DNA of 64,000 bases from the NCBI GenBank assembly GCA_047920955.1, contig JBLRXA010000001.1, positions 1,200 through 65,199 of the forward strand, given 5' to 3'. The first letter of the stretch is position 1; every line of letters starts with the position of its first letter. Below the pieces are notes generated by a model. The model saw nothing but the letters and a program-made list of their open reading frames with translations. It did no database searches and was not told the DNA's origin. The translations under genes and the position numbers were made by a program. The stretch is from Methylobacter sp. GTDB taxonomy: Bacteria > Pseudomonadota > Gammaproteobacteria > Methylococcales > Methylomonadaceae. Positions 14,818-30,295 of the stretch are shown here, one piece after another.

Positions 14818-15780
14818 TTATCGGCGGCTTCTCGAAAGCAAAAGGCTTTTATCCAATAGCCGCCATATTTTAAGGATAGAGGCCGTGCGCTGGGCTTGGA
14901 CAATTCGCCGTTTTCGCCACATATTAGGGAGGCCGTTTAATGCGTCTTTCTTTGCCTTAACGATGATATTGGCTTGCCCCTGCCGGGAGAAATATAGAAC
15001 AGACACGATATTTAAGGCGGCATGAAGCGGGAGCAAAAGCCAAAACAGGATGCCGGGCATGTTTTTGACGAATGCCCAGACCATGTTGCGGTGGCCGTGA
15101 TAGATTGAAAAGTCGCTACGCTGCCCACCGGTGCTGGCTGACCCTGCGTGATAGACAGTCGCCTCAGGCACATAACGGGCTGGATAATTGTTCAGTTGCA
15201 GGCGAAAACCTAAATCCACATCTTCAACATAACAAAAAAAATCTTCGTCGAATCCGCCTACCTGCTTTAAAACACTTAGCCGGTAAAAGGCCGCGCAAGC
15301 ACAGGGTGAGAATATGGCCTGGCCGACATCACCGCTGCCAGACTGGGTTTTGCCATAACCATCACGCCATAACAGGCCGGAGATATGATAAATGTCGCCT
15401 TTGCCGTCAATTTTGTCCGGTGTTTCGAGCTGCATTTGTTTTGAGCCGAACACCGAAATGGCGGGGTGTTGTTCGGTTGCTTTCATCAAATTCAATAGCC
15501 AGTCCTTATCGGGCAATGCGTCAGGATTGAGCAAGGCCACCCATTCCGTATCGCATTCATCCAGTGCGCGGTTATTGGCGGCGGCAAAACCCAAGTTGTC
15601 ATTCAAATAGCGGACAGTGACCCCTGGAGCCTGGGCTGCCAGTTGGGCTGACCCGTCGCTACTGCCGTTATCCATAAGCAAAATACGCCGAGGCGGGTAG
15701 CTTTGCATCTGGAGATGCGAAAGGCAGCGCCGCAATAGATCGCCGCCGTTCCAGTTGACGATAATGACAGTGATGGACAT
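14818..15780 (-). CDS. Glycosyltransferase family 2 (rhamnosyltransferase-like)
   Basis: IIVNWN, DNGSSDGS, NLGFAAANN, LLNPD, FDEDFFCYVEDVDLGFR. Confidence 0.93.
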   Translation of the reverse strand: MSITVIIVNWNGGDLLRRCLSHLQMQSYPPRRILLMDNGSSDGSAQLAAQAPGVTVRYLNDNLGFAAANNRALDECDTEWVALLNPDALPDKDWLLNLMKATEQHPAISVFGSKQMQLETPDKIDGKGDIYHISGLLWRDGYGKTQSGSGDVGQAIFSPCACAAFYRLSVLKQVGGFDEDFFCYVEDVDLGFRLQLNNYPARYVPEATVYHAGSASTGGQRSDFSIYHGHRNMVWAFVKNMPGILFWLLLPLHAALNIVSVLYFSRQGQANIIVKAKKDALNGLPNMWRKRRIVQAQRTASILKIWRLLDKSLLLSRSRR

Positions 15781-15836
15781 GCTGTTTGCTTAAAGTTGAG
15801 AAGCTGAATTCAAGGCCGCGATATTACGGAACCGGC

Positions 15837-16931
15837 CTATTTTGGCGAGCCAGGATTGAAGCGGGAGATGATTTTATGCCAGCCTGATCTTATCCATAAT
15901 GTTTTACTTTTTATTTCTTCAAAAGTTCTTGGGCGCAGAACATCAATGTCGCCCATTTGTTGCTGAAACCAGCGGTCATCAACCCCATAGGTACTGGCCA
16001 ATAGATTGTGATGTTTTGGGCTGTTTAGCAGGTTTTGCATAGCGAGCAGGCCGACAAGTTTATAAGGTTTACCCAACCATTTATTTTCGTTAAAAAACAG
16101 CAGTGTTTTTTCAATAGCCAGATGCTCTTCAGTAGGAATATCTTTAACGACCAATAAATCTGCAAACCCGTCAATAAGCTGGTCACGGCTGACATCGTCA
16201 AAAAAATTAGTGGCAATAAGATAATGCTCGTTAATCGTCCTTATCGCATTTTTAGGCACCTGACTACTCGCATTCTCGCCGGGTAGGATTCTGAAGCTAA
16301 TTAATTCACGATCTGATATATGAATGTCATATCGCTTGATCAAACGGATCCATGCCTCAAAGTCAGGGAGCTGCCGAAGCCGGTTGTTATACATTCCAAG
16401 CTCTCGATAGCAAGACTTGCGAATAAGCATTGTAGGGTGGCAAATACAATTGCCATGATCAAAAAATCGCCTTAACCATTGGCCTTGGGAACGGTTTTCT
16501 TGGTCGAAAACAGCCCCAAAAGTGAGTAATGACTTGTCAATTTCAGCCCCCTCTTTATCGACAAAACGGGCTCTGCCGAAACATGCGCCAATGCCTGGGT
16601 TTGCCCGCATAAGTTGAACCTGAAAAGACAATTTGTCGGCAGCAGTCCAGTAATCATCGGAGTTAATTAAGGCAATGAATTCGCCGGAAGCCCGTTCAAT
16701 AAGCTCGTTGGTAACGATGCAAGCGCCACGGTTAACCGTGTTTGGAAAGAACCGGACTCTCGGGTCTTCAATTGAGGCAACAACGTCCCTTGTCCGATCG
16801 GAAGAGCCGTCATCGGCAATTAAAAACTCAAAATCCACCCCCTGTTGGGCGAGCACGCTATCGACCGCCTGTTTGACAAAGTCGGCATGATTGTAAGTCG
16901 CCATGATGACGGAAACTATTGGTGATTTCAT
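15837..16931 (-). CDS. Glycosyltransferase family 2
   Basis: VSVIMATYN, DDGSSD, NSDD; ATGA overlap with upstream gene. Confidence 0.92.
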   Translation of the reverse strand: MKSPIVSVIMATYNHADFVKQAVDSVLAQQGVDFEFLIADDGSSDRTRDVVASIEDPRVRFFPNTVNRGACIVTNELIERASGEFIALINSDDYWTAADKLSFQVQLMRANPGIGACFGRARFVDKEGAEIDKSLLTFGAVFDQENRSQGQWLRRFFDHGNCICHPTMLIRKSCYRELGMYNNRLRQLPDFEAWIRLIKRYDIHISDRELISFRILPGENASSQVPKNAIRTINEHYLIATNFFDDVSRDQLIDGFADLLVVKDIPTEEHLAIEKTLLFFNENKWLGKPYKLVGLLAMQNLLNSPKHHNLLASTYGVDDRWFQQQMGDIDVLRPRTFEEIKSKTLWIRSGWHKIISRFNPGSPK

Positions 16932-17896
16932 AACGGGCCTGACTGCATGGTTTTGATAATAAAACGCTTGAGTTTTGGGGGGGTTAATGCCCGAATTGCC
17001 GCCAAGAATATCGGAGGTAAGCAATCAATAAGGCAGGCAAGCAAGCAAGCGGTGGGTTTTTTTGCGGTGGCAGCAAGATGGGTCAAATTGGATATGGAAA
17101 CCATCTGTTGAAGCCGATTTGATAATAATTCAAACTCGGCATGATAAACATGGTCGGTGAGTGTGTCGTACACCGGAATCAATGCCAGCTGCGCCTTAAG
17201 TTTTTCCGTTGGCGCCGTTTGCGTCCAAACACCGTTTGCATGCAAACGGTAAACCGACATAGTCTCTTCGATGAAGCCAATGAGGCTGCTGCGTGCCACA
17301 CAGATGTTCACAATCCAATCATAGGAGCAGATTTCAAAAAGCTCTTTAGGTAGCGCGGATAACGCGGATTTTCGGTACATGCAGGTTGAAAAGTTCCCCA
17401 CCAGGTTATCCGCAATCAAGTCCCTGGCGCTAAGCAAACGGTAGCCCGTGCCAGGGGCAGTCCTCGGGTAAAAATGAAAACGGGTTTCCTCAAAAACGAA
17501 ATAATTAGCCGAGCAAAGGCCGCATTCCCAATGAGCATCAAGAAACTCGATTTGACGTTGAAGCTTAAATGGGCTTATCCAGTAATCATCACCTTCCAAC
17601 ACCGCCACATAGTCGCCTGAGCAAGCCGCAAAACCACGCTGGTAATTTTTTGTAATGCCTAAGTTTATTTTATTATCCAGATACTTAAAGTGAAACTGGT
17701 GGTCTTTTTTATTTTCGTACTCTTTGATCAGGGAAACGGTATTGTCCGACGAACCATCGTCGGCAACAATTAGCTCAATAGGCTCCTTGGTTGCTTGGCC
17801 AAATAGCGCATCAAGTGCTTGGCGAATATAATTCTCATGGTTATAGGTTACCAAAAGAACGCTGATTCGGCAGGGGGCTGGTGGTGTAGCTGGCAT
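16928..17896 (-). CDS. Glycosyltransferase family 2
   Basis: LLVTYNHE, DDGSSD, LEGDDYW. Confidence 0.92.
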   Translation of the reverse strand: MPATPPAPCRISVLLVTYNHENYIRQALDALFGQATKEPIELIVADDGSSDNTVSLIKEYENKKDHQFHFKYLDNKINLGITKNYQRGFAACSGDYVAVLEGDDYWISPFKLQRQIEFLDAHWECGLCSANYFVFEETRFHFYPRTAPGTGYRLLSARDLIADNLVGNFSTCMYRKSALSALPKELFEICSYDWIVNICVARSSLIGFIEETMSVYRLHANGVWTQTAPTEKLKAQLALIPVYDTLTDHVYHAEFELLSNRLQQMVSISNLTHLAATAKKPTACLLACLIDCLPPIFLAAIRALTPPKLKRFIIKTMQSGPL

Positions 17897-18033
17897 TTTT
17901 TTTAACCTTAGGCAGGATATTTAATAGACGGTTTCAACGGCTGGTGCGGTCAGGAGGGCGGCTGCTTTTTAAAGGTAAAATTTTTCCAAAAACCACCTAA
18001 CAACGTGTCCCTGCCAAAACAGGAACAATGGGG

Positions 18034-18615
18034 TCAGTTTACTTCAATTGGGGGGTTACTGAAAAGGAAGGCCTGTTCCAATTCGAGCAAGTCACGTTTG
18101 CGCTCTTTTATGCGCCGTGCCGGGCTACCGGCATAGATGCCGAAAGCCCGGCAATTTTTTGTGATCAAACTAAGCGCGCCCACTGCGACACCTTCCTCGA
18201 GTATTATCCCAGGCAAAATTACACTGCCGCAGCCGACAATAACATGTTTGCCAAGAAGCACATCCGCGTGGGTAACCCCGGTAAACTGGCTGGGCAATGT
18301 CGGGTTGGTCATGGAAATGCCGGAATAATCGTCATTACTTGAATAGATGGAGACGCGTGAAGAAATGTTACAAAAATCAGACAGGGTTATTTTTCCGGCT
18401 CCAATCAAAGACGAAAATACCGCGATATGGACATTATTGCCGATACTTATACCGCCAGCACCGGCAGATAACACGCAAAAATCATCAATTCTGACATTAT
18501 TGCCCAATGATATTTTTGATGGATTATAAAATGAAGCGCGATCTGAGATATTTACATTATCACCCACTGAAGCGAAGCCCATTTCCCCAATTAGTTCGCG
18601 AGACAGCAGGCCCAT
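18034..18615 (-). CDS. Hexapeptide-repeat sugar N/O-acetyltransferase (VioB-like)
   Basis: Left-handed beta-helix repeats (VRIDDFCVLS, IGNNVHIA, YAGSPAR); follows the aminotransferase. Confidence 0.9.
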   Translation of the reverse strand: MGLLSRELIGEMGFASVGDNVNISDRASFYNPSKISLGNNVRIDDFCVLSAGAGGISIGNNVHIAVFSSLIGAGKITLSDFCNISSRVSIYSSNDDYSGISMTNPTLPSQFTGVTHADVLLGKHVIVGCGSVILPGIILEEGVAVGALSLITKNCRAFGIYAGSPARRIKERKRDLLELEQAFLFSNPPIEVN

Positions 18616-18649
18616 TAAGTTGTCCTTTGTGAATGAAGCAAATGGCTTA

Positions 18650-19768
18650 TCATGGCAATGCCTTTGAAATTATATTGACAATATGTTTCATATCCTGCAT
18701 GGCTAAGGCTGGATAGATCGGCAGGCATAGCACCTTGGAGGCGGCATCGGAGGCCACAGGCAAATTGCCGCGCTGGGCTGAAGGCAAGCCCCGGTACATG
18801 GAAAAATCGGAAATCAATGGATAAAAGTAGCGCCTGGCGTAAATGCCTTGCCCTTTGAGGTTCTCGTAGAGCTCATCCCGGCTCAACGGATATTCAGGCT
18901 CCACCAATATCGGGAAATAGGAGTAATTCGCGGTCATTGCGTCCACATAGTCTAAGCACCGTATGCCCTGTAGCCGGGCTAGATGCTCACGGTAAAAAAG
19001 ATCAATTTCTTTACGGCGAACAAGGGCCTTATCTATATGCTGAAGTTGCAGCAAACCAAAAGCGGCGTTGATTTCGCTCATTTTGCCATTAATGCCAGGT
19101 GCGACTACGGTCACTTCATCCACGATACCAAAATTTTTAAGGTGGTCGATGCGTTGTTTGGTTTTAGCATCAGAACAAACAATTGCCCCGCCTTCAAAGG
19201 TATTAAAGACCTTGGTGGCGTGGAAACTTAACACCGACAGGTCGCCATGGTTGAGTACGCTGCCGTGCAGGTCTTTTACACCGAAAGCATGGGCCGCATC
19301 ATAAATAACCTTAAGGTTGTAAGTGTCGGCAATTTTCTGGATTGCGCCAACATCGCAGGGATGTCCGTAGCAATGTACCGGCATTATGGCGGTCGTGTGT
19401 GGCGTTATGGCCGATTCTATCTTGGCTGGGTCAAGATTAAGCGTATTGGGGTCAATATCGGCGAACACAGGCTTAATGCCATTCCACAATAAAGAATGTG
19501 CCGTAGCCACAAAAGAATACGGCGTAGTGATGACCTCGCCGGTAATACGCAAAGCTTGCAAAGCGGTGACCAAGGCAATCGTCCCATTGGTAAATAGGGC
19601 AATATGGTCAACGCCTAAGTATTCGCATAACGCTGCCTCCAGTTGCTGATGAAAAGGGCCGCCATTGGTGAGGGTTTTATTGTCCCAAATTTTTTCCAGA
19701 TAAGGGATGAATTCTTCCAGCGGTGGCAACAGGGGCTGCGTGACGAAAATATTTTGTTTTCCGCTCAT
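18650..19768 (-). CDS. vioA: DegT/DnrJ-family dTDP-4-keto-6-deoxy-sugar aminotransferase (VioA-like)
   Basis: LTNGGP, YDAAHAFG, SFHATKVFNTFEGG (PLP Lys), RRYFYPL. Confidence 0.85.
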   Translation of the reverse strand: MSGKQNIFVTQPLLPPLEEFIPYLEKIWDNKTLTNGGPFHQQLEAALCEYLGVDHIALFTNGTIALVTALQALRITGEVITTPYSFVATAHSLLWNGIKPVFADIDPNTLNLDPAKIESAITPHTTAIMPVHCYGHPCDVGAIQKIADTYNLKVIYDAAHAFGVKDLHGSVLNHGDLSVLSFHATKVFNTFEGGAIVCSDAKTKQRIDHLKNFGIVDEVTVVAPGINGKMSEINAAFGLLQLQHIDKALVRRKEIDLFYREHLARLQGIRCLDYVDAMTANYSYFPILVEPEYPLSRDELYENLKGQGIYARRYFYPLISDFSMYRGLPSAQRGNLPVASDAASKVLCLPIYPALAMQDMKHIVNIISKALP

Positions 19769-20820
19769 GACACGTTGTGCTTATTGGTGAAAAATGAAAA
19801 AAACCGTGACAAGTAGGCAAGGCTCTTTGCGCAGAAAGAATTTTGCTGTTTCAGCATCAGTGCCACCGCCGCCTCAAGTTGAGTTATCTGATTTCCGCGT
19901 GATGCCCAATTAATTTCAATATCGGCAAGTGACTGCTCAAGTCGGGTGATATGTTCGCCGCGTGCCGCCCAATCAATTCCGATGTCGGCAAGCGACTGCT
20001 CAAGCTGGGTGATAACGTCGCCACGCGCAGCCGATTCTGTTTCAATACGTTGAATATAATTGTGTAGCCTGCTTAACTCGGAATTTACATTGCTTAACTC
20101 GGAATTTACATTCCTTAACTCAAAGTGCTCTAATTGGCGTGCACCTAATGCGGTAAAATAAGGTATTAAGCTTTGCTTTTGACCTGAATCCGGTTGAAGC
20201 CAATCCAGCTTTTTTCCATCTGGCGCGTCATTCAGCTGCAATACGCCCATTCCATTGGAGTGCATGAATTCTAAATTGTTCGGATAAGCCGCTTGCAACT
20301 CTTCCCACAGTCTCCACACGCCGAAATCGCGCTCACGGACATTGGTATCATGGAACAACACAATCGCACCGGGCGCTAATTTTGGCAACCACGTTTCAAA
20401 ATCATGGCGGACCGCTTCGTAGGTATGCAACCCATCAATATGCAGCAGATCTATTGATTTATCCGCGAAATAAGTGACCGCCTCATCGAATGTCATGCGC
20501 AACAATCGGGAAAAAGCCGCATAATGCTCCTGATGATAACGATTAACTTGGGCAAAAACCGCATCGTCATAGAGGCCCGCGTGCTCATCGCCTTGCCATG
20601 TATCAACGGCATAACATTTTGTTGGGATGCCATTTTCATCAGCAGCCTGGCAAAACGAAAAATAAGAATTTCCAGTGTGTGTGCCAAGTTCTACAAATAC
20701 GTTGGGTTTAACTTCCTTAATCACCCACGCAGCAAATGGCAAATGCCCTATCCAAGCATTGGGAAACTGTAACGATTTCGGAGAAAAAGTACTGATTTCT
20801 AGCAAATTATTTAGATTCAT
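19765..20820 (-). CDS. Class I SAM-dependent methyltransferase with C-terminal repeated coiled coil
   Basis: VELGTHTGNS, LLHIDGLHTYEAVRHD, VLFHD; 7-aa and 21-aa repeats in the tail. Confidence 0.9.
   Translation of the reverse strand: MNLNNLLEISTFSPKSLQFPNAWIGHLPFAAWVIKEVKPNVFVELGTHTGNSYFSFCQAADENGIPTKCYAVDTWQGDEHAGLYDDAVFAQVNRYHQEHYAAFSRLLRMTFDEAVTYFADKSIDLLHIDGLHTYEAVRHDFETWLPKLAPGAIVLFHDTNVRERDFGVWRLWEELQAAYPNNLEFMHSNGMGVLQLNDAPDGKKLDWLQPDSGQKQSLIPYFTALGARQLEHFELRNVNSELSNVNSELSRLHNYIQRIETESAARGDVITQLEQSLADIGIDWAARGEHITRLEQSLADIEINWASRGNQITQLEAAVALMLKQQNSFCAKSLAYLSRFFSFFTNKHNVS
20071..20121. repeat. 21-bp tandem repeat (about 2.4 copies) in the methyltransferase tail
   Basis: GCTTAACTCGGAATTTACATT x2 plus partial copy; encodes NVNSELS repeats. 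Confidence 0.9.
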
Positions 20821-20950
20821 GTCGCGCTATGCTTATGGGGTTATGTGGATGTGCTTAACTTATCGTAAATCCACGGATTTCTTAGTTTGATTGATTTTAT
20901 CAATCTATGAGGACATTTTCATTAGTCCATATGTAGCCGATATGCCATGT

Positions 20951-21901
20951 CTAAATGTTGGCGTTAAGGTCGGCCGTGTTTTCCATTCCTGATGATGTTT
21001 CCAGCATCATCAAAGGCAGTACATCGGCCGCCCACCATGCGCTAGGATGACGCCGTATTGCCTGGCCAATGAATGTATAGGGGTCTTCGCCGGGGGCGGA
21101 AAAACGCAGATGATGAATCCCCGCATGAAACTCACACACAAAACCCATAAGCGGGGCCTGCGCTATCTTGGCCAACTTAACCGCTCCGGGCGCAAAGCCG
21201 CAAGATACGCCTAAAAATGGCTTGACAAGCGCAGATTCGTTCGGGTCGGCGGGCAAATCACCGACAATGACCACGGCGCCGCCGCGCTGCAAGAAACGTA
21301 CGAATTTGCTGGCGTTGCCTTGCCGATCAAGAATTTGGCCGCCGTTAAGATAGCGTCCCATGGCCGCATATTTTTGCCGATAAAAACGGCCGATACGGGG
21401 ATGCACTCGCGGATCGTCGACTATATTTGAGCTCATCCCCAGCACTGGAAGGCCGAGGCGCTGCAGCAATACGGTGCCCAGAATGCTGCTGCCGAAATGC
21501 CCAGTAAGAAAAACCACCCGGGGATGCTCTTGCAGCAGCGCCAGCATACCATCAAGGCCTTCGTAACTGACCGGCCATTGCGAAATGTCACGCCCGATGA
21601 TCATGCAGGCGGCCTCCCACTCCTCGATACTCTGCATCTGGTAGCGTTGCGCCACGGCTTGGGTCAGCGCCAAAGCGCCAGCTTCCGGCAAAAGCCGGCC
21701 CAATGTTTGTTGCGTTCGCCGGTAAAGGCTTTGGTCTTGGAAGGAAAGTTGCCGCCAGTCGCGTTTCAGCCAGGCATATAGCAACCCTCGCCAAGCGGCT
21801 AAGCATCGCCCCCAGGATAAAGGCAACCGCGCCAGCAAGGGCAACAACACACCGTAATCCCACGCGATCCATTGGCGCTGAATCCAGCTTAGGTGGCTCA
21901 C
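20951..21901 (-). CDS. LpxL/LPLAT-like acyltransferase family protein
   Basis: N-terminal LARLPL helix, VSYEGLD, VVFLTGHFG, VVIVGD, PFLG, GAVKLA, HPSAWW; GTG overlaps wzt stop. Confidence 0.7.
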   Translation of the reverse strand: MSHLSWIQRQWIAWDYGVLLPLLARLPLSWGRCLAAWRGLLYAWLKRDWRQLSFQDQSLYRRTQQTLGRLLPEAGALALTQAVAQRYQMQSIEEWEAACMIIGRDISQWPVSYEGLDGMLALLQEHPRVVFLTGHFGSSILGTVLLQRLGLPVLGMSSNIVDDPRVHPRIGRFYRQKYAAMGRYLNGGQILDRQGNASKFVRFLQRGGAVVIVGDLPADPNESALVKPFLGVSCGFAPGAVKLAKIAQAPLMGFVCEFHAGIHHLRFSAPGEDPYTFIGQAIRRHPSAWWAADVLPLMMLETSSGMENTADLNANI

Positions 21902-23142
21902 AATTGCTCCCAAGTCCGTTGCAGCGCGACCACGCCTATTTCAAGGCCCGGTTGCGTCACTTCAAATTCAGAGCATCGGGCCGAATCGTAAATATGAATG
22001 GCCTGTTCACATAACAAAAAGACATTGACCATATAATGTCCGCGCAACAACTGAATGCTGGGAAACTTCACTTGAACGGTCGCGGCCCCCTGCGCATCGC
22101 GCACCAGACCGACCTTATCGTAATAATTGCAGCAACTGGTGATATTGTGCCCGCCCTTATCGGTAATGATTACCGCAACGCTAGGGCAAGGCAAATCGGG
22201 GCATGAGCTGAAGCTGACTTGCACGGCCAAAGTAGAGGCCATGCTGGCTAGCTTCAAAGTAGACGGTGCCTGGCCATCAGCCGTCACAACTACATGGTTG
22301 ATTTGGGCTGACCCTGACGCAGGCGGTGGCGTCGAGAGGGTAAAGTCTATTGAATCGGCAGGGGGGGCGGCAGATTTAGGTTTGTCAATCTGATCTAAGA
22401 ACTGGTTGTATCCCCGGCATACAATGGCCGCTTCGTCCAAGATCCTTATTTGACCGTTATCTAGCCATAATGCGCGCTGGCACAAAGCCTCAAGTTGGTA
22501 AATATTGTGCGAACAAAATAATATCGTGGTGCCGCGCGCTTTTAAATCAATAATGCGGTCAAACGATTTCCGCGCAAAAGCGCCATCCCCTACTGACAAG
22601 GCCTCATCAATCACCAAAATATCAGGCTCGACGCTGGTGGCGACGGCGAATGCCAAACGCACGTACATGCCGCTGGAATAAGTTTTGACCGGCTGGTCGA
22701 TAAACTCGCGGATGCCGGAAAAATCCACGATCTCTTCGAAGCGCGCATCAATCTCTTTCCGGCTTAGCCCCATAATGGCCGCGCTCATAAATACGTTTTC
22801 GCGGCCAGTGAACTCAGGGTTAAATCCGGCGCCAAGTTCCAGTAGCGCGGCAACGCGCCCTCGGACAACGACTTCGCCTGAGGTTGGCGTCAATGTGCCG
22901 CAAATCAGTTGCAACAAGGTCGATTTGCCCGCACCATTGCGCCCGACAATGCCCATGACTTCGCCTTTGCCGATTTCAAAGCTGACATCGCGCAAGGCCC
23001 AAAATTCGCGGAAATACTGCCGTTTGCCGCGCCATAAAAACTGTTTTAAACGGTCATGCGGCTGCCCGTAAAGCTGGTAACACTTGCTTAAATGGTTGAT
23101 GCTGATCGCGGCTGTGTTTTGTGCTAATTCAATTGGCTTCAT
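21898..23142 (-). CDS. wzt: ABC polysaccharide exporter ATPase with Wzt_C carbohydrate-binding domain
   Basis: GRNGAGKST, YSSGMYVRLAF, IDEALSVGD, extended C-terminus. Confidence 0.95.
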   Translation of the reverse strand: MKPIELAQNTAAISINHLSKCYQLYGQPHDRLKQFLWRGKRQYFREFWALRDVSFEIGKGEVMGIVGRNGAGKSTLLQLICGTLTPTSGEVVVRGRVAALLELGAGFNPEFTGRENVFMSAAIMGLSRKEIDARFEEIVDFSGIREFIDQPVKTYSSGMYVRLAFAVATSVEPDILVIDEALSVGDGAFARKSFDRIIDLKARGTTILFCSHNIYQLEALCQRALWLDNGQIRILDEAAIVCRGYNQFLDQIDKPKSAAPPADSIDFTLSTPPPASGSAQINHVVVTADGQAPSTLKLASMASTLAVQVSFSSCPDLPCPSVAVIITDKGGHNITSCCNYYDKVGLVRDAQGAATVQVKFPSIQLLRGHYMVNVFLLCEQAIHIYDSARCSEFEVTQPGLEIGVVALQRTWEQL

Positions 23143-23208
23143 CTTAGTTAATCGTTAAGCTGTCCCGGAAGCATTAATGCTTCCGGCAAGCTGTCCTGTT
23201 TATGTCCC

Positions 23209-23642
23209 ATTCGCGTTATTGCATCTTGGCGCAAGCGATTGAACGTGTCCATCAGCATTAAGCTGTATTCCTTTGCCAATTGGCGACGATTTCCAAGGTA
23301 TGCAGAAAGCGCACTGCTGGTAAGGCCAAGGTTGCATTCATAATCTTAATTCCTGTTATCGCCGCGTGTTCATGTATGGCTTGGCGTGGGGCTTGAAGGA
23401 TCAAGCACCAGCACATCAATAGGCTGGTCACCGATGCGTAATTGCAGTTTGGCAGTGAGCTGCAGGGTTTTACATGCAATCTCTGAGGTAACTGAGGGCA
23501 GTTAAATCAGCAGGTCAACAATATCGCCGCCTCGTGCGTCATCATTTATTCTCGAACCAAACACTTTTACCGTGGCTTCAGCGCCGAAAATTTCTTGGGC
23601 TGTTTCCCGGACTATAGTTTGGGTATGTGGCGAAAGTCCCAT
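23209..23642 (-). pseudogene. Decayed minimal nucleotidyltransferase gene plus remnant of a probable HEPN partner
   Basis: MGLSPHTQTIVRETAQEIFG...VFGSRINDDARGGDIVDLLI* then ...LQLRIGDQPIDVLVLD with stop and frameshift; short downstream fragments. Confidence 0.7.
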
Positions 23643-23670
23643 TTTAAGTGTCCTTTGCGGCCAACCAGGC

Positions 23671-24489
23671 TCACAGCACATCGGCAAACCCTTTTCTGGT
23701 TTTCTCAAACCAAAACAGCCCTAACCACGCAATAACAATGGACACGGCGCTATAAATGCCGAGTTGGCTCCAGTCCGGTTGTTTGCCCCAAAGTAAAATA
23801 TTGCGCACTTGCTCGACAACAAACGTGATGGGGTTCAAAAACAGGTAAGCGCCCACGCTTTCCGGCAAGGCGCTCAATGGGTAAAAAATGGGGCTCATGA
23901 ACATCAGCACGGTGATTACCATGCCGACCAGTTGCCCCATGTCGCGGATAAAAACGCCGAGCGATGCCAGCAGCCAGGACAAGCCCATAATCAGCAACAA
24001 AAACGGCAGCAACACAAGGGGCAACCACAGTATCGTCCAAAAAAAACCGTGGCCAACAAGGGCCAAAAACACCAGCAACACCGCCAAACTGATGCAGGTA
24101 TGGAACAAGGCGGAACCGAGCGCCACCCAAGGCAGTATTTCAAGCGGGAAGATAACCTTTTTGACATAATTGACATTGCCCAAAATCAGCCCCGGCGCCC
24201 GGCCAATACATTCGGCAAACAGGTTAAAGACAATCAACCCTGCAAACAATACCAGCGCAAACTCGTATTTATCGACATCACCTTGCCCCCAACGCGCCTT
24301 GAACACAAAACCAAAGACGAAGGTGTAAACCGCCAGCATCAGCACGGGATTGACGAACGACCATAACAGCCCCAGAAATGAACCCCGGTAGCGGCCGATC
24401 ACTTCACGTTTGACCATTTGCAGGATGAGGGGGTAATTGCTCAGTAGGCTGAGGAATACATTGAAAAAACGGAATGATGTCGAAGTCAA
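23671..24489 (-). CDS. wzm: ABC polysaccharide exporter permease
   Basis: REVIGRYRGSFLGLLWSFVNP, NYVKKVIFP, FEKTRKGFADVL. Confidence 0.96.
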   Translation of the reverse strand: MTSTSFRFFNVFLSLLSNYPLILQMVKREVIGRYRGSFLGLLWSFVNPVLMLAVYTFVFGFVFKARWGQGDVDKYEFALVLFAGLIVFNLFAECIGRAPGLILGNVNYVKKVIFPLEILPWVALGSALFHTCISLAVLLVFLALVGHGFFWTILWLPLVLLPFLLLIMGLSWLLASLGVFIRDMGQLVGMVITVLMFMSPIFYPLSALPESVGAYLFLNPITFVVEQVRNILLWGKQPDWSQLGIYSAVSIVIAWLGLFWFEKTRKGFADVL

Positions 24490-24600: not shown

Positions 24601-25290
24601 TTATTCAGTTTGTTCGCCGCTCGCGACATGGCTTAAATAATGGATGTCCTTAATCTCCAGGTTATTGCCGTTGCGCGCAATCACGCCGTTAGTTTGTAAT
24701 TTTTGAAACACGCGGGTGACGGTTTCGCGGGTGACGTTAATCATAATGGCAATCTCCTGATGTGTCGGCGCCAGCACAATAACCTGCTCCCCAGAAGGCG
24801 TTTTTATCGTTAACCGGATCAATTGTGCGCAGACCCGTTGCAGCGGCGAAGGCATGGTCAATAATGTCCGTTGCGTGAGTGCTTCACGCAAACGCCGCGC
24901 CAGCCGGGCATTGATTAGCGCGGCCACTTGCGGCACTTCGTTGACCAGCTGCAAAATAATTTTGGCGGGCACGGTCACAAACCGCGACGGCACGAGGGAG
25001 ATGACCATCTCGTGCGTAGGCAGCTGGTCAACCACAGCAAGCTCGCCGAAAAAATCGTTCGGTTCGACAAAATAAAGCCCGGCTTCGCGCCCGTCCAGGG
25101 TAATGTCAACCCCTTGCAGCCTGCCATCGAGCAACAGGCCTAGTGAGTGGGCGAGTTGGTTTTTTTCCATGACCACTTTACGCCGGGGCACTTCGACCAG
25201 TTGTGCGTATTGGCTAAGTTGGCGAATAACCTCAGCTGGAAGCGGCTTGAACAGGTCAAACTGCTTGAGCAGCAGCGGGTCAATGGCCAT
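24601..25290 (-). CDS. Crp/Fnr-family transcriptional regulator
   Basis: cNMP-binding fold (FFGELAVVD) and HTH THQEIAIMINVTRETVTR. Confidence 0.95.
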   Translation of the reverse strand: MAIDPLLLKQFDLFKPLPAEVIRQLSQYAQLVEVPRRKVVMEKNQLAHSLGLLLDGRLQGVDITLDGREAGLYFVEPNDFFGELAVVDQLPTHEMVISLVPSRFVTVPAKIILQLVNEVPQVAALINARLARRLREALTQRTLLTMPSPLQRVCAQLIRLTIKTPSGEQVIVLAPTHQEIAIMINVTRETVTRVFQKLQTNGVIARNGNNLEIKDIHYLSHVASGEQTE

Positions 25291-25508
25291 AAGGAAACAA
25301 AAAATTTCTCAAAAACAAACGTGTCCTATCTGTAGCATTTAGAATTTTTTAGGGGATAAAGTCCGGCGCTGAACCTGAATGCTTGGTTCTGTTTTTATTA
25401 TAGGGTAGCCAGCGTTTGGCTGTCATCATTTTGCTGTTTTTGGGGGGCAGATAAAAAACCTTATCCAGGATATTGAAAAAAGGTTATATCTCGAAAATGG
25501 CTGATGTG

Positions 25509-25524
25509 TGTGATTCTAGGCACA
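25509..25524 (+). promoter_or_regulatory. CRP-type binding site at class II spacing upstream of the FecR-cyclase-OMP operon
   Basis: TGTGA-TTCTAG-GCACA (9/10 match to TGTGA-N6-TCACA); TAATAT -10-like hexamer at 25545-25550. Confidence 0.7.
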
Positions 25525-25590
25525 GCGTAAACGTATGGATAAGGTAATATGCAGCCACTTAAATGAAATTGCGCCCATACAGGAACAATA

Positions 25591-27018
25591 ATGAACACTT
25601 CAATAAAAGTAAGTTGCTTCAACGCGCTTGATGCCCCCAAGAGGCGGTGGCGCGACATAACGGTGGCCGTCTTGCTGGTATTGTTTGCCGCCCCGCAATT
25701 ACGTGCTAATGAACAAAATCAACCGGATAAGGCGGGGCACGTCACGCTGGTTATCGGCCAGGCGATAACGCACAACAAAAAAGGTGAACGGCATGCCCTG
25801 AAACGCGGCGACTCGGTTTATGTTGAGGACATTATCGAAACCGCCGCCGGCGGCCACCTGCATTTGCGCTTTATCGATGATGGCACGGTCAGCCTGCGGC
25901 CTAATAGCCGTTTAAGCATTGAGCTTTATCGTTACGACAGGGTGAACCCTAACAACAGCGCGATCCGTTTCAATCTGGAAACAGGTGTTATCCGCAGCAT
26001 TTCCGGAAAAGCCACCGAAGCCGCACATGACCGCTTCCGTCTGAACACCCCCATTACCGCGATTGGCGTTTTGGGCACTGATTTTGTCGTACGCGCTGAA
26101 CCGGAAAAAATGTGGGCCGGCGTCTATTCGGGCGCGATTGCCATCGCCCCGCTCAATGCGCAGTGTTCGGCTAATGGCCTTGGCGTCTGCGCCGGGGCGA
26201 CGCATTTGTCGGAAAATATGGGCAGTGTCATGCTTGAATTCAGCGGCGGCAGAATCAGGGAAAAAATTGTACCGCGTGACTCGACGATCCTGCCTGAGGC
26301 GAGCCCCGACCATACTGATAGCGAGAAACCGAATCAATCCGCAGCGCCAATGACAGCACCGACGCGCACAGCCGGACTTGAACGTGGCGGTAAAAGCGAC
26401 GGCGCTTCAAATGCCGCGTCAGGGCGCATGACCGTTGCAGAAATGAAAGCGATTGACGTTGCCACGCGCTTGGATATACCCGGCAAGCAGTTACCCCCCC
26501 CGATACCGCCCGCACCCTTTACATGGGCGCGCTGGGGCGGGCAATGGGCAGGCGATACTATGAGCCAACCTTACGGCGAGGCGCGGGAAGGCAAACAAGT
26601 GACGGTCGGCAACAGCCATTTTGCCTTATTTCGCACACCCACCGCATCGTCCGAATTGCAACCCCAGACTGGCGCTTACGACTTTAAATTAAGCCAAGGC
26701 CAGGTTCATTTTGTCAACAATGGCCCCGCGTGGCAGAAAGATAAAATTACCCCCGCCAACCTGGATGCGGGGGCGCTGCATGTCGATTTCGCCCAGCGGC
26801 AATTCAATACTCAGTTGGAAATGAGCAATCTCAATCAAGAATCCGCGATCCTTAATGTGTCCGGCCCCATTCGCGACAATGGCGTTTTCACTGCACAAAA
26901 TGCAGCCGGAAAAGTGGCGGGGGCGCTATCGGCAGAAGGCGGGTATGCCGGCATGTTTTTCGAGCGCGAGATTCAGTCGGGCACTTTCCACGGACTGACG
27001 GATTGGGTCAAACACTAA
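25591..27018 (+). CDS. Exported FecR-domain protein with low-complexity linker and C-terminal beta-rich (TbpB-like barrel) domain
   Basis: Signal/TM segment; FecR motifs (GDSVYVEDIIET, DGTVSLRPNSRL, TPITAIGVLGTDF); Pro/Ala linker; LHVDFAQRQFNTQL...VAGAL...AGMFFE. Confidence 0.85.
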   Translation: MNTSIKVSCFNALDAPKRRWRDITVAVLLVLFAAPQLRANEQNQPDKAGHVTLVIGQAITHNKKGERHALKRGDSVYVEDIIETAAGGHLHLRFIDDGTVSLRPNSRLSIELYRYDRVNPNNSAIRFNLETGVIRSISGKATEAAHDRFRLNTPITAIGVLGTDFVVRAEPEKMWAGVYSGAIAIAPLNAQCSANGLGVCAGATHLSENMGSVMLEFSGGRIREKIVPRDSTILPEASPDHTDSEKPNQSAAPMTAPTRTAGLERGGKSDGASNAASGRMTVAEMKAIDVATRLDIPGKQLPPPIPPAPFTWARWGGQWAGDTMSQPYGEAREGKQVTVGNSHFALFRTPTASSELQPQTGAYDFKLSQGQVHFVNNGPAWQKDKITPANLDAGALHVDFAQRQFNTQLEMSNLNQESAILNVSGPIRDNGVFTAQNAAGKVAGALSAEGGYAGMFFEREIQSGTFHGLTDWVKH

Positions 27019-28970
27019 TGCCATCGGAAACTTTACTCAAAAATCGCCTCACGCCGTTTGTACTGGCAGCAACACTGACATTAACCGTCAGTGTGTTTTG
27101 GGCGGAGCCTTTTTCCAATATTGAGGCTGTGGTCGGCGACCAACTCTGGCAACTGATCGATAGCGGCAGTCCGGTTAACCGGGAACGGCGTGTTGTTGTC
27201 ATCGATATTGATGAAGCCAGCATCGCCCAATACGGTGCATGGCCGTGGCCGCGTGAGCGTACCGCAACCCTGTTAAAAAACCTGGCCGACCACGGCGTGG
27301 CGCAACGCATTGTCGATATTACCTTCCCCGATGCCAAACCGGGCGACGACCAACTGGCGGCAGAATTGCTGAAAACGCCGACCATCCTGGCGCAAGTATT
27401 GGCCGTCAATGCCGACCATCCCGTAAACCGGGGCCAGCTGCAAGGCGCGTTGTCTAATGATGTATGCCCCGGACAATTTCCTGAAGCTAACGGTATCATC
27501 GCCAACGCGCCGCATCTTCGCGCCGCCAGCGCCGGGCACATTACCCCGCAAATTGCAGCAGATGGCGTTATCCGGCAGTTGTCGGCCATTATCTGTTACC
27601 AAAACAAAGCCTATGTCACCCTAGCCTTAGCCGCGATAGCCGAAGGTGCGGGTCTGGCGCCTGATTTTAGTATTACCCCCGGCAGCCGATGGCTGCAGCC
27701 AATGGCTGTACTACGTCACCCAGGACTGCCCGGATTTTCGGTGCCCATCAGCCAACAAGGCGACATCCTCTTGCCTTGGTGGATGTCACGCGCCGCCATT
27801 ATTTCCTTGTCCGCTAAAGACGTCATGGAAGGCAACGTACCGGCCGGATACCTGAAAGGCGCTTGGGCGTTAGTGGGCGCCACCGCGTTCAGCATAGGCG
27901 ACACCATTTCGACGCCGCAGGCGGGGACAGCCAGCGGCGTTGAAGTCCATGCGCAACTGTTGACCGCGCTGTTAGATGGTCGCATACCCTATCAGCCGCG
28001 TGGCACAATTTTTCTGCAAATCGGCTGGATGGCACTGTCGGCTCTGCTGTTGCTGGGTGCCAGCTATTTTCGCGGCGGCGTGTCGCACGTCTACGGCCCA
28101 CTATTAAGCGGCCTGCTGTTGCTGGCCGCAAGTGCTACGCTGCACGTCAGTCTGCTCTGGGCTTTTAGCCTCTGGCAGCCGTGGATGGCATCGGCATTTT
28201 TTATACTGTCCCTCGCCACCCTCATCACTACCCAAGGCTACCTGAGCAGCCGCGCCGAAGGCGACCTGCTGTACCGCAACCTGTCCAGCTATCTGCCCGC
28301 CCATGTCGCCAAGCAGATTGCCCAGCAAGAACCGGGCAGCACACTGAATGCGCACCATGAACAAGTCATTGTCCTGTATGCGGATTTAAGGAATTTCTCG
28401 GCTTGGTGCGACCAATTGCCGGCAGAACAGGCGGGCGCGTTACTGCATAACTTCTACACCTTCACCAGCAAAATTATCCACCAGCAAGGCGGCGTTGTTG
28501 AAGAATATGTCGGCGATGCGGTCATGGGGGTTTGGCGTGGTAGCAATAACGATTTACGGCCGCTCAATGCTGCCAAAAGCATGGTCTCGACTGGCGAGCA
28601 GCTGTTTGGTGCCGAAACCAACATCAATACTTTGCCGCCGTTAGCGGTCGGCATCGGTATTGAACAGGGCGAGGTGTTAGTCGGCGCATTTGGCCCTGCC
28701 CGGCGTCGGGTACACACCTTGTTAGGCAGAACAGTAACGACGGCAATCCGCCTGCAGGCTATGACCGGCGAACTGTCGCAACCCATCGTCTGCGGCGAAA
28801 ATGTCGCCCAATCCTGGAAAGGGCAGGTCAATATCATCTCGCTAGGCAACTTTCTGTTACAAGACCGGCGGCAGCCGACCGAGCTGTTCGTGCCGGCAAT
28901 CGAGCGCCGCCAAGTGAATTCGCCGTCTGTAAATCCCCTACAAACGGAGTTGACGGTAGATATCGGGTGA
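27018..28970 (+). CDS. CHASE2-domain class III nucleotide cyclase
   Basis: VVVIDIDEASIAQYGAWPWPR, DGVIRQ, GVEVHAQ (CHASE2); TM helices; YADLRNFS, YVGDAVM, GIGIEQG; TAATG overlap. Confidence 0.93.
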   Translation: MPSETLLKNRLTPFVLAATLTLTVSVFWAEPFSNIEAVVGDQLWQLIDSGSPVNRERRVVVIDIDEASIAQYGAWPWPRERTATLLKNLADHGVAQRIVDITFPDAKPGDDQLAAELLKTPTILAQVLAVNADHPVNRGQLQGALSNDVCPGQFPEANGIIANAPHLRAASAGHITPQIAADGVIRQLSAIICYQNKAYVTLALAAIAEGAGLAPDFSITPGSRWLQPMAVLRHPGLPGFSVPISQQGDILLPWWMSRAAIISLSAKDVMEGNVPAGYLKGAWALVGATAFSIGDTISTPQAGTASGVEVHAQLLTALLDGRIPYQPRGTIFLQIGWMALSALLLLGASYFRGGVSHVYGPLLSGLLLLAASATLHVSLLWAFSLWQPWMASAFFILSLATLITTQGYLSSRAEGDLLYRNLSSYLPAHVAKQIAQQEPGSTLNAHHEQVIVLYADLRNFSAWCDQLPAEQAGALLHNFYTFTSKIIHQQGGVVEEYVGDAVMGVWRGSNNDLRPLNAAKSMVSTGEQLFGAETNINTLPPLAVGIGIEQGEVLVGAFGPARRRVHTLLGRTVTTAIRLQAMTGELSQPIVCGENVAQSWKGQVNIISLGNFLLQDRRQPTELFVPAIERRQVNSPSVNPLQTELTVDIG

Positions 28971-30295
28971 ATTTCAATGTAGGCGTTTGCATTCCTTTTG
29001 GTAAATTGGGGGCTAATAAGGATTTATCTCGGCACATCTTCCCCGGCTTTTTTTTGCCCAAAAAAACGGGCGGGCGTTTATATTGCACATGGCAAATGGC
29101 CGTCCTGGCGCTCATCTTTGCTGCCGGCACACCGGCAAACGCCTGCGACCTAACCTGCCTTGAGCAAATTGACGCACAGGTGCGCCAGGCAGCCGCACTT
29201 AATGCGGACAAACGCTACACTGAAGCGGCGGATCTGCTGGAACGCCTGTTAATGCAATACCCGGATGCCGAAGACGCCGTGCAACAATACAGCCGTGCGC
29301 TGGCAGGGCTGGAAAGCCTGGCGGGCATCCAGCCCCCACAGCAAACAGGGCAAACCGAACAAATCAATACAAGCAGCCCACACGACTGGCAAATCAGCGG
29401 CGACCTGCAAATACGCGGCGGCTACAGCAGCAACTTAAACCAAGCGCCCACCCAGCCAAGCATCCAGCTGACCCTGCCCGACCAGACCGTCACCCTCGAA
29501 CTGCAGCAGCAATTCCAGAAACAAGCCGGATTTGGCATTGAAACACAGCTGAGTGCAAACGCAGGGCGTCTGCTTACAGACAAGCTGCAATGGCAAATAA
29601 GGGGCGAGCTTTTTAACCGGGAAACGGATTACAGCGGTTACGCAGACTATCAAGGCGCCAACCTGCTCAGCACACTGATGCGGCAATGGGACAACGGCGC
29701 CGAAACCGGCGCCGCACTAGGGTTTAACGCGCTGCATTATGGCGGCGACGTTTACCTGTACACGACCCAAATGATGCTGCGCCATGTCGGGAAAAAAGGC
29801 GCTTACTGCAAGCCCCAGACAGGGCTTGATTTGTTATGGCAAAGACAGCACCAAAACCCGCTGCTTGACAGCCGCTACACCGGGCTGATGGTCGGCGCCC
29901 TCTGCGATACCGGCCTCGGCTTTTATAGCGCCGCTGTCAACGCCGGATGGGATTGGGCCGACAGCCAACGGCCCGGCGGCGACCAGCAGCGTACCCGGCT
30001 GGAAATGCTCGGTATCTGGACGACCGACGCCCTCATCAAGAATAGCTTTGTCAAAGCCCATACCGATTTCCTGTACAGCAGCGACATGCAATCTTACAGC
30101 GCCTGGCTGGGTAACGGCGCCGCAAGATACATAAGCCGGGTCGGACTAGGCCTGGATTATGACTGGCCGTTGGCAGCAATAGCCGATAATTGGCGGGGAA
30201 CGGCCAGTGTAAGATGGCAAAATCAGAACAGCAACATCAGCCTGTTTGAAACCGACACGCTGGAAGGCTGGCTAGGCGTCAGGATAGTTTGGTAA
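28967..30295 (+). CDS. TPR + outer-membrane beta-barrel protein (Slam/DUF560-like)
   Basis: Hydrophobic signal segment, TPR-like EAADLLERLLMQYPD, GGYSSNLNQAP, amphipathic strands, WQNQNSNISLF, terminal W; true start may be downstream. Confidence 0.7.
   Translation: MNFNVGVCIPFGKLGANKDLSRHIFPGFFLPKKTGGRLYCTWQMAVLALIFAAGTPANACDLTCLEQIDAQVRQAAALNADKRYTEAADLLERLLMQYPDAEDAVQQYSRALAGLESLAGIQPPQQTGQTEQINTSSPHDWQISGDLQIRGGYSSNLNQAPTQPSIQLTLPDQTVTLELQQQFQKQAGFGIETQLSANAGRLLTDKLQWQIRGELFNRETDYSGYADYQGANLLSTLMRQWDNGAETGAALGFNALHYGGDVYLYTTQMMLRHVGKKGAYCKPQTGLDLLWQRQHQNPLLDSRYTGLMVGALCDTGLGFYSAAVNAGWDWADSQRPGGDQQRTRLEMLGIWTTDALIKNSFVKAHTDFLYSSDMQSYSAWLGNGAARYISRVGLGLDYDWPLAAIADNWRGTASVRWQNQNSNISLFETDTLEGWLGVRIVW

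Follow-up and report, generated by a model that had tools for sequence, protein, structure and literature searches.

The window analysed here is a stretch of 64,000 nucleotides (nt) from a Methylobacter species (contig JBLRXA010000001.1), and all coordinates below are positions within it. It contains a four-gene unit in which a crp gene lies divergent from three overlapping genes that encode an exported FecR-domain protein, a CHASE2 membrane sensor with a cyclase-fold domain and an outer-membrane protein (OMP). The four open reading frames (ORFs) and their strands are as a sequence-only reading of this DNA had described them, as are the TAATG and GTGA overlaps within the operon. The features of the unit are:

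24601 to 25290, minus strand: Crp-family activator of 229 amino acids (Pfam, alignment to M. tuberculosis Crp)
25397 to 25426, minus strand: sigma-70-like promoter match (11/12) upstream of crp, a consensus match only
25509 to 25524, no strand assigned: Crp box TGTGA-N6-GCACA, the sole site in the window with at most one mismatch and the top score genome-wide
25545 to 25550, plus strand: -10-like hexamer, 20 nt past the Crp box, in class II geometry (sequence)
25591 to 27018, plus strand: predicted exported FecR-barrel protein of 475 amino acids (sequence, predicted structure, homologue alignment)
25729 to 26274, plus strand: its FecR-fold domain, residues 47-228 (predicted structure, alignment)
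26275 to 26517, plus strand: its Ser/Pro/Ala-rich disordered linker of about 81 amino acids, residues about 229-309 (model, homologue alignment)
26518 to 27012, plus strand: its handle and 8-stranded barrel (likeness to the C-terminal domains of NHBA, fHbp, TbpB and hemophilin)
27018 to 28970, plus strand, ATG start: inner-membrane CHASE2 sensor of 650 amino acids with a class III cyclase-fold domain (Pfam, residue alignment)
28967 to 30295, plus strand: divergent Slam/DUF560-type OMP with a short tetratricopeptide repeat (TPR) region and a predicted 14-strand barrel (structure prediction, profile comparison)

Pfam identified a Crp helix-turn-helix and a cyclic nucleotide monophosphate (cNMP)-binding domain in the Crp protein, FecR (E 5e-15) and a weak TbpB_B_D match (E 0.013) in the FecR protein, CHASE2 and Guanylate_cyc in the sensor, and only TPRs in the OMP. 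The start of the OMP is uncertain, as translation from the GTG at 28967 would leave a leader of unusual length and the database entry (P0124) begins at a TTG at 29054.

A profile of the FecR protein recovered 457 relatives in species-representative genomes, and the loci of the best 80 were fetched. All four genes were found together in 63 of these 80 loci, so their arrangement is not due to chance, and the window's four genes do form a recurring unit, as had been supposed. In the remaining loci the OMP gene (8) or crp (4) was missing, or only Crp and FecR (3), cyclase and FecR (1) or FecR and OMP (1) were present; many of these gaps are contig ends, and in two cases crp is found elsewhere in the genome. 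The unit occurs in Methylococcales, Burkholderiales, Rhodocyclales, Pseudohongiella and Marinomonas, with the closest relatives of the window's copy in Methylobacter. Its distribution is patchy, as a full-length FecR protein was found in 10 of 301 genomes of the family. Two loci from records titled Klebsiella (L073, L084) have the residue patterns of the Pseudohongiella group, and their labels may be wrong. We distinguish a window clade, with cultured hosts in Zoogloea sp. LCSB751, Inhella, Polaromonas OV174, Aquaspirillum serpens DSM 68 and Ca. Methylobacter oryzae, from a parallel clade, with cultured hosts in Massilia/Telluria and Pseudoduganella.

The sequence-only reading had missed two features, a conserved Crp box and an S-layer (surface-layer)-like target gene. 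A Crp box with at most one mismatch was present in all 72 divergent Crp-FecR intergenic regions, compared to 0.6% of base-shuffled copies. In 40 of these 72 regions the box is followed by a -10-like hexamer that begins 21 nt past it, and no other offset accounts for more than 7. With this spacing the box is centred at -41.5, the position of a class II activator. The DNA-reading helix of Crp (R188, E189, R193) is kept in 74/74 window-clade sequences. The recognition helix is thus intact, and TGTGA-N6-TCACA sites are found at the distance expected of an activator. A second Crp box was found downstream of the OMP gene in 41 of 57 loci (68 with an OMP gene, minus 11 with too little downstream DNA), with a -10 element 21-22 nt past it in 22 of the 41. 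The ORFs that follow this second box resemble each other: 39 match a single profile, 28 of which were used to build it. This profile matches the C. crescentus S-layer protein RsaA over 88 positions (E 4e-13). An RTX Pfam match was present in 5/15 of the target proteins, and four that were examined in full are 817-952 amino acids long. Four loci with canonical cyclase and Crp residues (L159, L160, L174, L209) have a third perfect Crp box just past the S-layer gene.

The association of this Crp with S-layer-type genes extends to whole genomes. Among 43 genomes of the genus, 10 encode a window-type Crp, 9 an S-layer-type N-terminal domain and 8 both. The S-layer-type domain is therefore present in 8/10 genomes with this Crp versus 1/33 without it, although related genomes are not independent observations. 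In 7 of the 8 genomes with both, a box lies 176-232 bp before one S-layer-type gene, and 7 other paralogues have no box. In the genome of the window, a duplicated S-layer-type N-terminal domain occurs in paralogues on three contigs (C76, C38 and C169; 1598, 1135 and 346 amino acids), and only the C169 paralogue is preceded by a Crp box, 214 bp upstream. Further matches to the box matrix occur on C87, C39, C9 and C7; two others, on C54 and C105, fall within coding sequence and were dismissed as chance matches. A 42-kb Methyloprofundus plasmid (AP023241.1, locus L248) carries crp and the genes for the FecR-barrel protein, the cyclase and the Slam-like OMP, the last set apart by a repA gene, as well as a 1640-amino-acid RsaA-like protein, a type I exporter, wzm/wzt and glycosyltransferases. 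Its only two Crp boxes are found before the FecR gene and before the surface-protein gene. As the whole kit is present on one plasmid, this suggests that the S-layer system is mobile. Taken from these sequence patterns, Crp likely activates an S-layer-like surface-protein gene together with its own sensor operon, and this control of surface-layer genes is much firmer than the coupling between cyclase and Crp that is discussed below.

The FecR protein has the architecture of a secreted cargo. Its N-terminus resembles a signal peptide by eye and lacks a lipobox. The predicted structure (predicted local distance difference test score, pLDDT, 82.2) contains a FecR-fold domain, a low-confidence disordered linker and a handle with an 8-strand barrel (residues 362-474). 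This agrees with the flexible linker and beta-rich C-terminal domain read from the sequence, and the TbpB-like barrel suspected there is borne out by matches to NHBA (Z 12.5, root-mean-square deviation (rmsd) 3.3, 133 residues aligned), fHbp, TbpB and hemophilin. A C-terminal 8-strand barrel is a common trait of Slam cargo, according to the available text of PMC8406197. The linker is 41-128 amino acids long in 112 homologues (median 66.5). Within the FecR-fold domain G162-T163-D164 is invariant, with Gly-Thr in 112/112 homologues, and the Cys192/Cys200 pair is kept in 110/112. This domain matches PupR (Z 14.9) and also the 'cell surface anchoring domain' 5ix9 (Z 12.0, rmsd 1.9, 75/76 residues aligned), presumably an adhesin retention module; the LapA retention model matched it below the cut-off (E 7e-8). 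Elsewhere in this genome, a protein with two FecR-like domains (C82, L093, 4534-7650) has a large surface-protein ORF on one side and a probable transporter ORF on the other, as judged by eye; this is a further arrangement that pairs FecR with the outer membrane.

The neighbouring OMP was suspected to be Slam-like, and structure and profile comparisons agree with this. Its predicted structure (150 sequences, pLDDT 90.5) consists of N-terminal TPR helices and 14 barrel strands. The nearest solved folds are CymA (Z 21.2) and OmpG (Z 18.6), and no solved Slam was among the PDB structure matches listed. Pfam SlipAM (PF04575) was found in 0/43 homologues scanned (of the 150 aligned) at E<=0.01, with a weak TPR_Slam match in one, and no PF04575 match was found in this genome. 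However, the OMP profile aligned end-to-end in hhalign with 15 PF04575-positive proteins (P 99.9%, E 2e-31, 390 columns), all above the PF04575 cut-off although 11 are weak family members, and it matched the four strongest PF04575 proteins at E 2e-8 to 4e-18. An Atlas language-model search with the OMP reached SlipAM clusters at 0.96. The OMP is a divergent Slam by homology of profile and predicted fold, not by Pfam membership. The FecR protein would supply the adjacent cargo that is typical of Slams, with a signal peptide (by eye) and a C-terminal 8-strand barrel. In class-wide samples from unrelated genomes (L096-L132), most Slam-like genes adjoin a FecR-domain gene; a canonical CHASE2 cyclase accompanies some of them (L124), and for many no cyclase is in view. 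With FecR genes next to so many other Slam-like genes, FecR-fold cargoes look widespread and may form a large class that has escaped notice.

How such a cargo could report on the cell surface depends on whether it remains tethered. It is improbable, but conceivable, that the FecR-barrel protein is bound to CHASE2 while in the periplasm and that complete export through the Slam takes it away, so that the export rate, set by the state of the outer membrane or S-layer, is the signal. The window protein lacks a lipobox and a lipobox-like string occurs in just 5/112 homologues, as would suit a released cargo, and the invariant Gly-Thr resembles the self-cleavage site of FecR-type anti-sigma factors. 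Soluble single-barrel cargoes of type XI secretion systems (T11SS) are indeed secreted into the medium, as far as the accessible part of PMC8406197 describes. However, the long disordered linker is always kept (minimum 41 amino acids), which a tether needs and a secretion checkpoint does not, and the N-terminal domain resembles the 5ix9 anchoring domain, the LapA match being below the cut-off. This alternative concerns the upstream half of the pathway and is compatible with either of the cytoplasmic couplings considered below.

The cyclase-fold domain has lost residues that are normally needed for catalysis. The window protein retains D456, D500 and R578, whereas E496 replaces the base-binding Lys, T574 replaces the catalytic Asn and G545 replaces Arg. 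Across 70 cyclase domains of the window clade (window included, truncated ones dropped), the Lys, the Asn and Arg545 are each found in 0/70, while D500 is present in 70/70 and D456 and Arg578 each in 66/70. Thr occurs in 30/70 at the position where adenylate cyclases specify adenine with Thr/Asp. Thus, of the residue pairs of an active adenylate cyclase, the metal-binding Asp pair is present, whereas the Lys and Thr/Asp pair and the Asn and Arg pair are not complete. A guanylate cyclase would combine a base-reading Glu with intact Asn/Arg; here Glu is found in 45/70, window included, but Asn in 0/70. From these replacements, the window protein is likely a pseudo-cyclase. Two further CHASE2 cyclases in this genome (C19, C65) are canonical, and a third (C47) has Ala at the Lys position.

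That the gene is merely a decaying remnant, with Crp acting alone, is very improbable. One locus (L075) does have FecR and OMP genes without cyclase or Crp. However, the cyclase frames are intact across Beta- and Gammaproteobacteria at 32-48% identity, and 17 columns are invariant across 66 sequences. The ratio of nonsynonymous to synonymous substitution rates (dN/dS) of the cyclase is 0.04-0.13 (6/7 pairs computable), indicating strong purifying selection, and pseudogene decay was rejected on values of <=0.13. The Crp gene is likewise under purifying selection (dN/dS 0.03-0.05, 6/7 pairs computable).

Crp has changed as well. Aligned without gaps to M. tuberculosis Crp, the window protein has T92 at the position of the phosphate-binding Arg, followed by H93 and E94. 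The Arg is present in 1/74 window-clade Crps and the pocket Ala is replaced by Glu in 71/74. Gly82-Glu83 of the phosphate-binding cassette is kept and the Arg-Ser/Thr-Ala part is not, so the cassette of a cNMP-binding Crp is incomplete. The same genome also encodes a canonical Crp with its Arg, on contig C15. The sequence-only reading had proposed that this cyclase makes a cNMP that this Crp reads; the clade-wide loss of Lys496 and Asn574 and of the phosphate-binding Arg in Crp speaks against that step. An ordinary cyclic AMP (cAMP) or cyclic GMP (cGMP) relay, from this cyclase alone or with another cellular cyclase to this Crp, with an outside cue unrelated to the S-layer, would match the domain annotation and the parallel clade. 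It would also match S. meliloti CyaK, in which Lys, Asn and Arg are all present, and through its retained Asp pair the window's cyclase could complement a canonical partner. Yet we consider such a relay distinctly unlikely, given the pocket with its Glu and without its Arg, the missing Lys and Asn in 70/70 cyclases of the clade, and a second box that points to surface-protein genes.

The parallel clade shows that this gene arrangement also exists with canonical residues. At the control locus L086, cyclase and Crp are both canonical. A metagenome scan with the L086 Crp gave 80 further loci. In 30 of these, the genes for the FecR-barrel protein, the cyclase, the OMP and Crp all occur, and an S-layer-like gene is in view in 14 of the 30; a class-wide search with the same Crp at E 1e-35 (0/381 genomes) was uninformative. 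All of these cyclase and Crp residues are canonical in 47/47 paired loci of the parallel clade, whereas both proteins are altered in 65/66 of the window clade, with the Crp Arg retained in 1/66. In a tree built from 56 cyclase domains, covering 34 of the window clade's 66, 16 of the parallel clade's 47 and 6 other cyclases, each group falls into one clade; the two are joined by long branches, so that a sister relation between them is not established. On this evidence from sequences, the joint residue loss is one change that has long been maintained, and the parallel clade likely runs the same parts with ordinary cAMP.

As the sensor and Crp have both lost key residues that normally serve to make or bind cAMP, the signal is likely passed by direct protein contact. 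We favour a conserved unit in which a membrane sensor would control Crp by contact and not via a cyclic nucleotide, although we place it a little below an even chance. An alternative with the same circuit and target, possible if rather unlikely, is that the cyclase still makes a little cGMP or an unusual nucleotide that is read by a re-shaped Crp pocket, as a private messenger insulated from ordinary cAMP. Both Asp residues and the Arg are mostly kept, Glu occupies the base position in most sequences, and residues near the active site are specific to the clade (Arg564 in 70/70, His566 in 68/70, Asn459-Phe460 in 70/70). Crp keeps Gly82-Glu83 and has Asp88 (74/74) and Glu94 (71/74), and insulation would be useful in a genome with a canonical Crp and two canonical CHASE2 cyclases. 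However, the positions that would read the base vary (496: E, N, H, A, R, Q, S; 567: T, A, V), as do positions 137/138 of Crp, the plasmid cyclase of AP023241.1 has the Lys and lacks the Asn and Arg, and Asp456 is missing in four members.

Under the contact model, the mechanism could run as follows. The FecR protein's C-terminal barrel would reach the cell surface through the Slam-like OMP, as fold and gene order suggest. The folded FecR domain, probably with a disulphide bond, would remain periplasmic on its linker of 41-128 residues and touch the CHASE2 domain. This FecR-CHASE2 contact would change with the state of the surface, most likely with the presence or absence of the S-layer and its glycan anchor; we infer this signal from the regulon. 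In response, the cyclase-fold domain would hold or release a Crp that acts independently of ligand. Holding, as an anti-activator, is favoured because Crp appears to induce its sensor's own operon, which would make a negative feedback. By binding to TGTGA-N6-(T/A/G)CACA boxes centred near -41.5, free Crp would then switch on both the operon and the S-layer gene. In its complete form, the type XI pore being the outer half of a tethered, TonB-free S-layer self-sensor and the pseudo-cyclase a membrane anti-activator of ligand-free Crp, this proposal is tentative and we regard it as doubtful in its entirety. There is a precedent for cyclase-Crp contact, as the available text of PMC10463352 describes direct binding of Clr by S. 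meliloti CyaC, whose K/T or N/R double mutants lack cyclase activity.

Several observations weigh against this interpretation. We infer physical contact for every protein pair, and a complex prediction with two cyclase domains and two Crps scored 0.02 (mark 0.32), which is no evidence either way. The 65/66 concordant pairs are not independent, as the joint loss is one evolutionary event in a single clade, and one Crp (L025) retains the phosphate-binding Arg. With Asp500 invariant and Asp456 and Arg578 mostly kept, metal-nucleotide binding and weak catalysis are still possible; Glu at 496 is guanylate-cyclase-like, the top PDB matches of the cyclase domain include 2w01 with Glu at the same position, and some mycobacterial cyclases are active without the Asn. 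In the CyaC precedent, co-sedimentation with Clr depended on ATP and was lost in the K/T mutant (PMC10463352, as far as its text is available). Soluble Slam cargoes with a cleaved signal peptide are not retained but go to the medium, again by the accessible part of PMC8406197. On the side of the target, the second box is missing in 16/57 loci, and the RsaA match is short and falls in a repeat-rich region. In the window's own genome, the boxed S-layer-like ORF is on a separate contig (C169), has 346 amino acids and ends 32 nt from the contig end, and the S-layer type that adjoins the unit in other Methylobacter was not found in this genome, which is 88% complete.

The four genes are flanked by wzm and rnfB, with a polysaccharide exporter on the crp side:

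21898 to 24489, minus strand: wzm/wzt-type polysaccharide ABC exporter, directly after crp (Pfam)

Genes like wzm/wzt lie within 5 kb of crp in 21/60 and 30/41 related loci of the two clades. In the window, the exporter is part of a surface-polysaccharide cluster (14818-24489) with the same reading direction as crp, which comprises glycosyltransferases, an acetyltransferase, a sugar aminotransferase, a probable methyltransferase and an acyltransferase-like gene besides wzt and wzm. No phosphodiesterase gene was seen among the flanking ORFs of the window. Elsewhere in the genome, a phosphoenolpyruvate synthase-like gene (C54, L134:6198-9566) carries an insertion that by eye resembles an intein with an endonuclease domain.

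The closest described parallel is the NsrA-CyaK-Clr cascade of S. meliloti, to which the unit had been compared from its sequence, and the likeness holds: there too, the gene for a FecR-domain envelope protein is next to that of a CHASE2 class III cyclase, and the output is a Crp-family protein. NsrA combines a FecR domain (66-160) with TPRs, and its gene directly precedes cyaK; SMc02177 is a further FecR-domain protein, encoded near cyaD1 and clr (PMC5498481, in the part available). Unlike the split receptor of the window, NsrA is a single 1200-amino-acid chain without a cargo barrel, and its own barrel was not recognised by the Slam profile (hhalign P 7%, TPR only; one NsrA sequence). CyaK keeps its catalytic residues, Clr requires cAMP or cGMP (accessible text of PMC10127613), and the output is plant-infection control instead of an S-layer gene (for the comparison, the available parts of PMC5498481, PMC7529298, PMC13001267 and PMC10127613). 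The unit works like NsrA-CyaK-Clr and is not a strict member, given its split receptor, Slam barrel and different nucleotide-handling residues. S. meliloti CyaC-Clr-CycR shares direct contact between a class III cyclase and Crp, but its cyclase is active and ATP/cAMP are required (PMC10463352, as excerpted). A Campylobacterota cluster, mentioned as a bioinformatic remark, combines a CHASE2 cyclase, a FecR-domain OMP, a TPR protein and a phosphodiesterase; the available text of PMC9239204 has no mention of Slam, a Crp box, an S-layer target or catalytic-residue loss.

With type XI secretion, the unit shares a TPR and 14-strand barrel protein and, next to it, a cargo that carries a signal peptide and ends in an 8-strand barrel (PMC8406197, available part). 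It differs in that the OMP is below Pfam SlipAM detection and the N-terminal domain of the cargo is a FecR fold on a long linker, within a signalling operon. FecR was listed as co-occurring 201 times with cluster-1 Slams in the supplement of PMC12282271, where it did not pass the false discovery rate filter (0.24); the main text does not mention it. No FecR cargo was found in the supplement of the T11SS survey PMC8406197, and no publication linking DUF560 and FecR was found outside subscription papers. FecA-FecR-FecI and PupB-PupR-PupI share the periplasmic FecR/PupR fold and likely a trans-envelope relay, but the window genes have no adjacent extracytoplasmic function (ECF) sigma factor or TonB-dependent receptor, and their FecR fold is carried by an outer-membrane cargo instead of an inner-membrane anti-sigma factor. 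The C. crescentus RsaA system may be comparable as regards the target genes, whose match to RsaA is short, the linked wzm/wzt and the type I exporter on the plasmid. Outside subscription papers, no paper was found that connects Crp and CHASE2 or FecR with an S-layer gene, or that describes a degenerate adenylate cyclase pseudoenzyme with a bacterial Crp.

We found no described regulator that ties an S-layer gene to such an envelope sensor, and the unit offers a testable S-layer feedback circuit. Slam pores have so far been described as exporters of nutrient-binding and adhesion proteins, and a role in signalling would be added here. The cAMP-competent and the residue-less clade form a paired natural experiment on how a relay becomes private or messenger-free; if the messenger was indeed dropped, the cAMP-using Massilia form is its natural control. 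Compared to these systems, the unit belongs to an established type of cascade but stands out in three respects: a predicted Slam-based sensor, a likely S-layer regulon and the joint loss of cNMP-handling residues.

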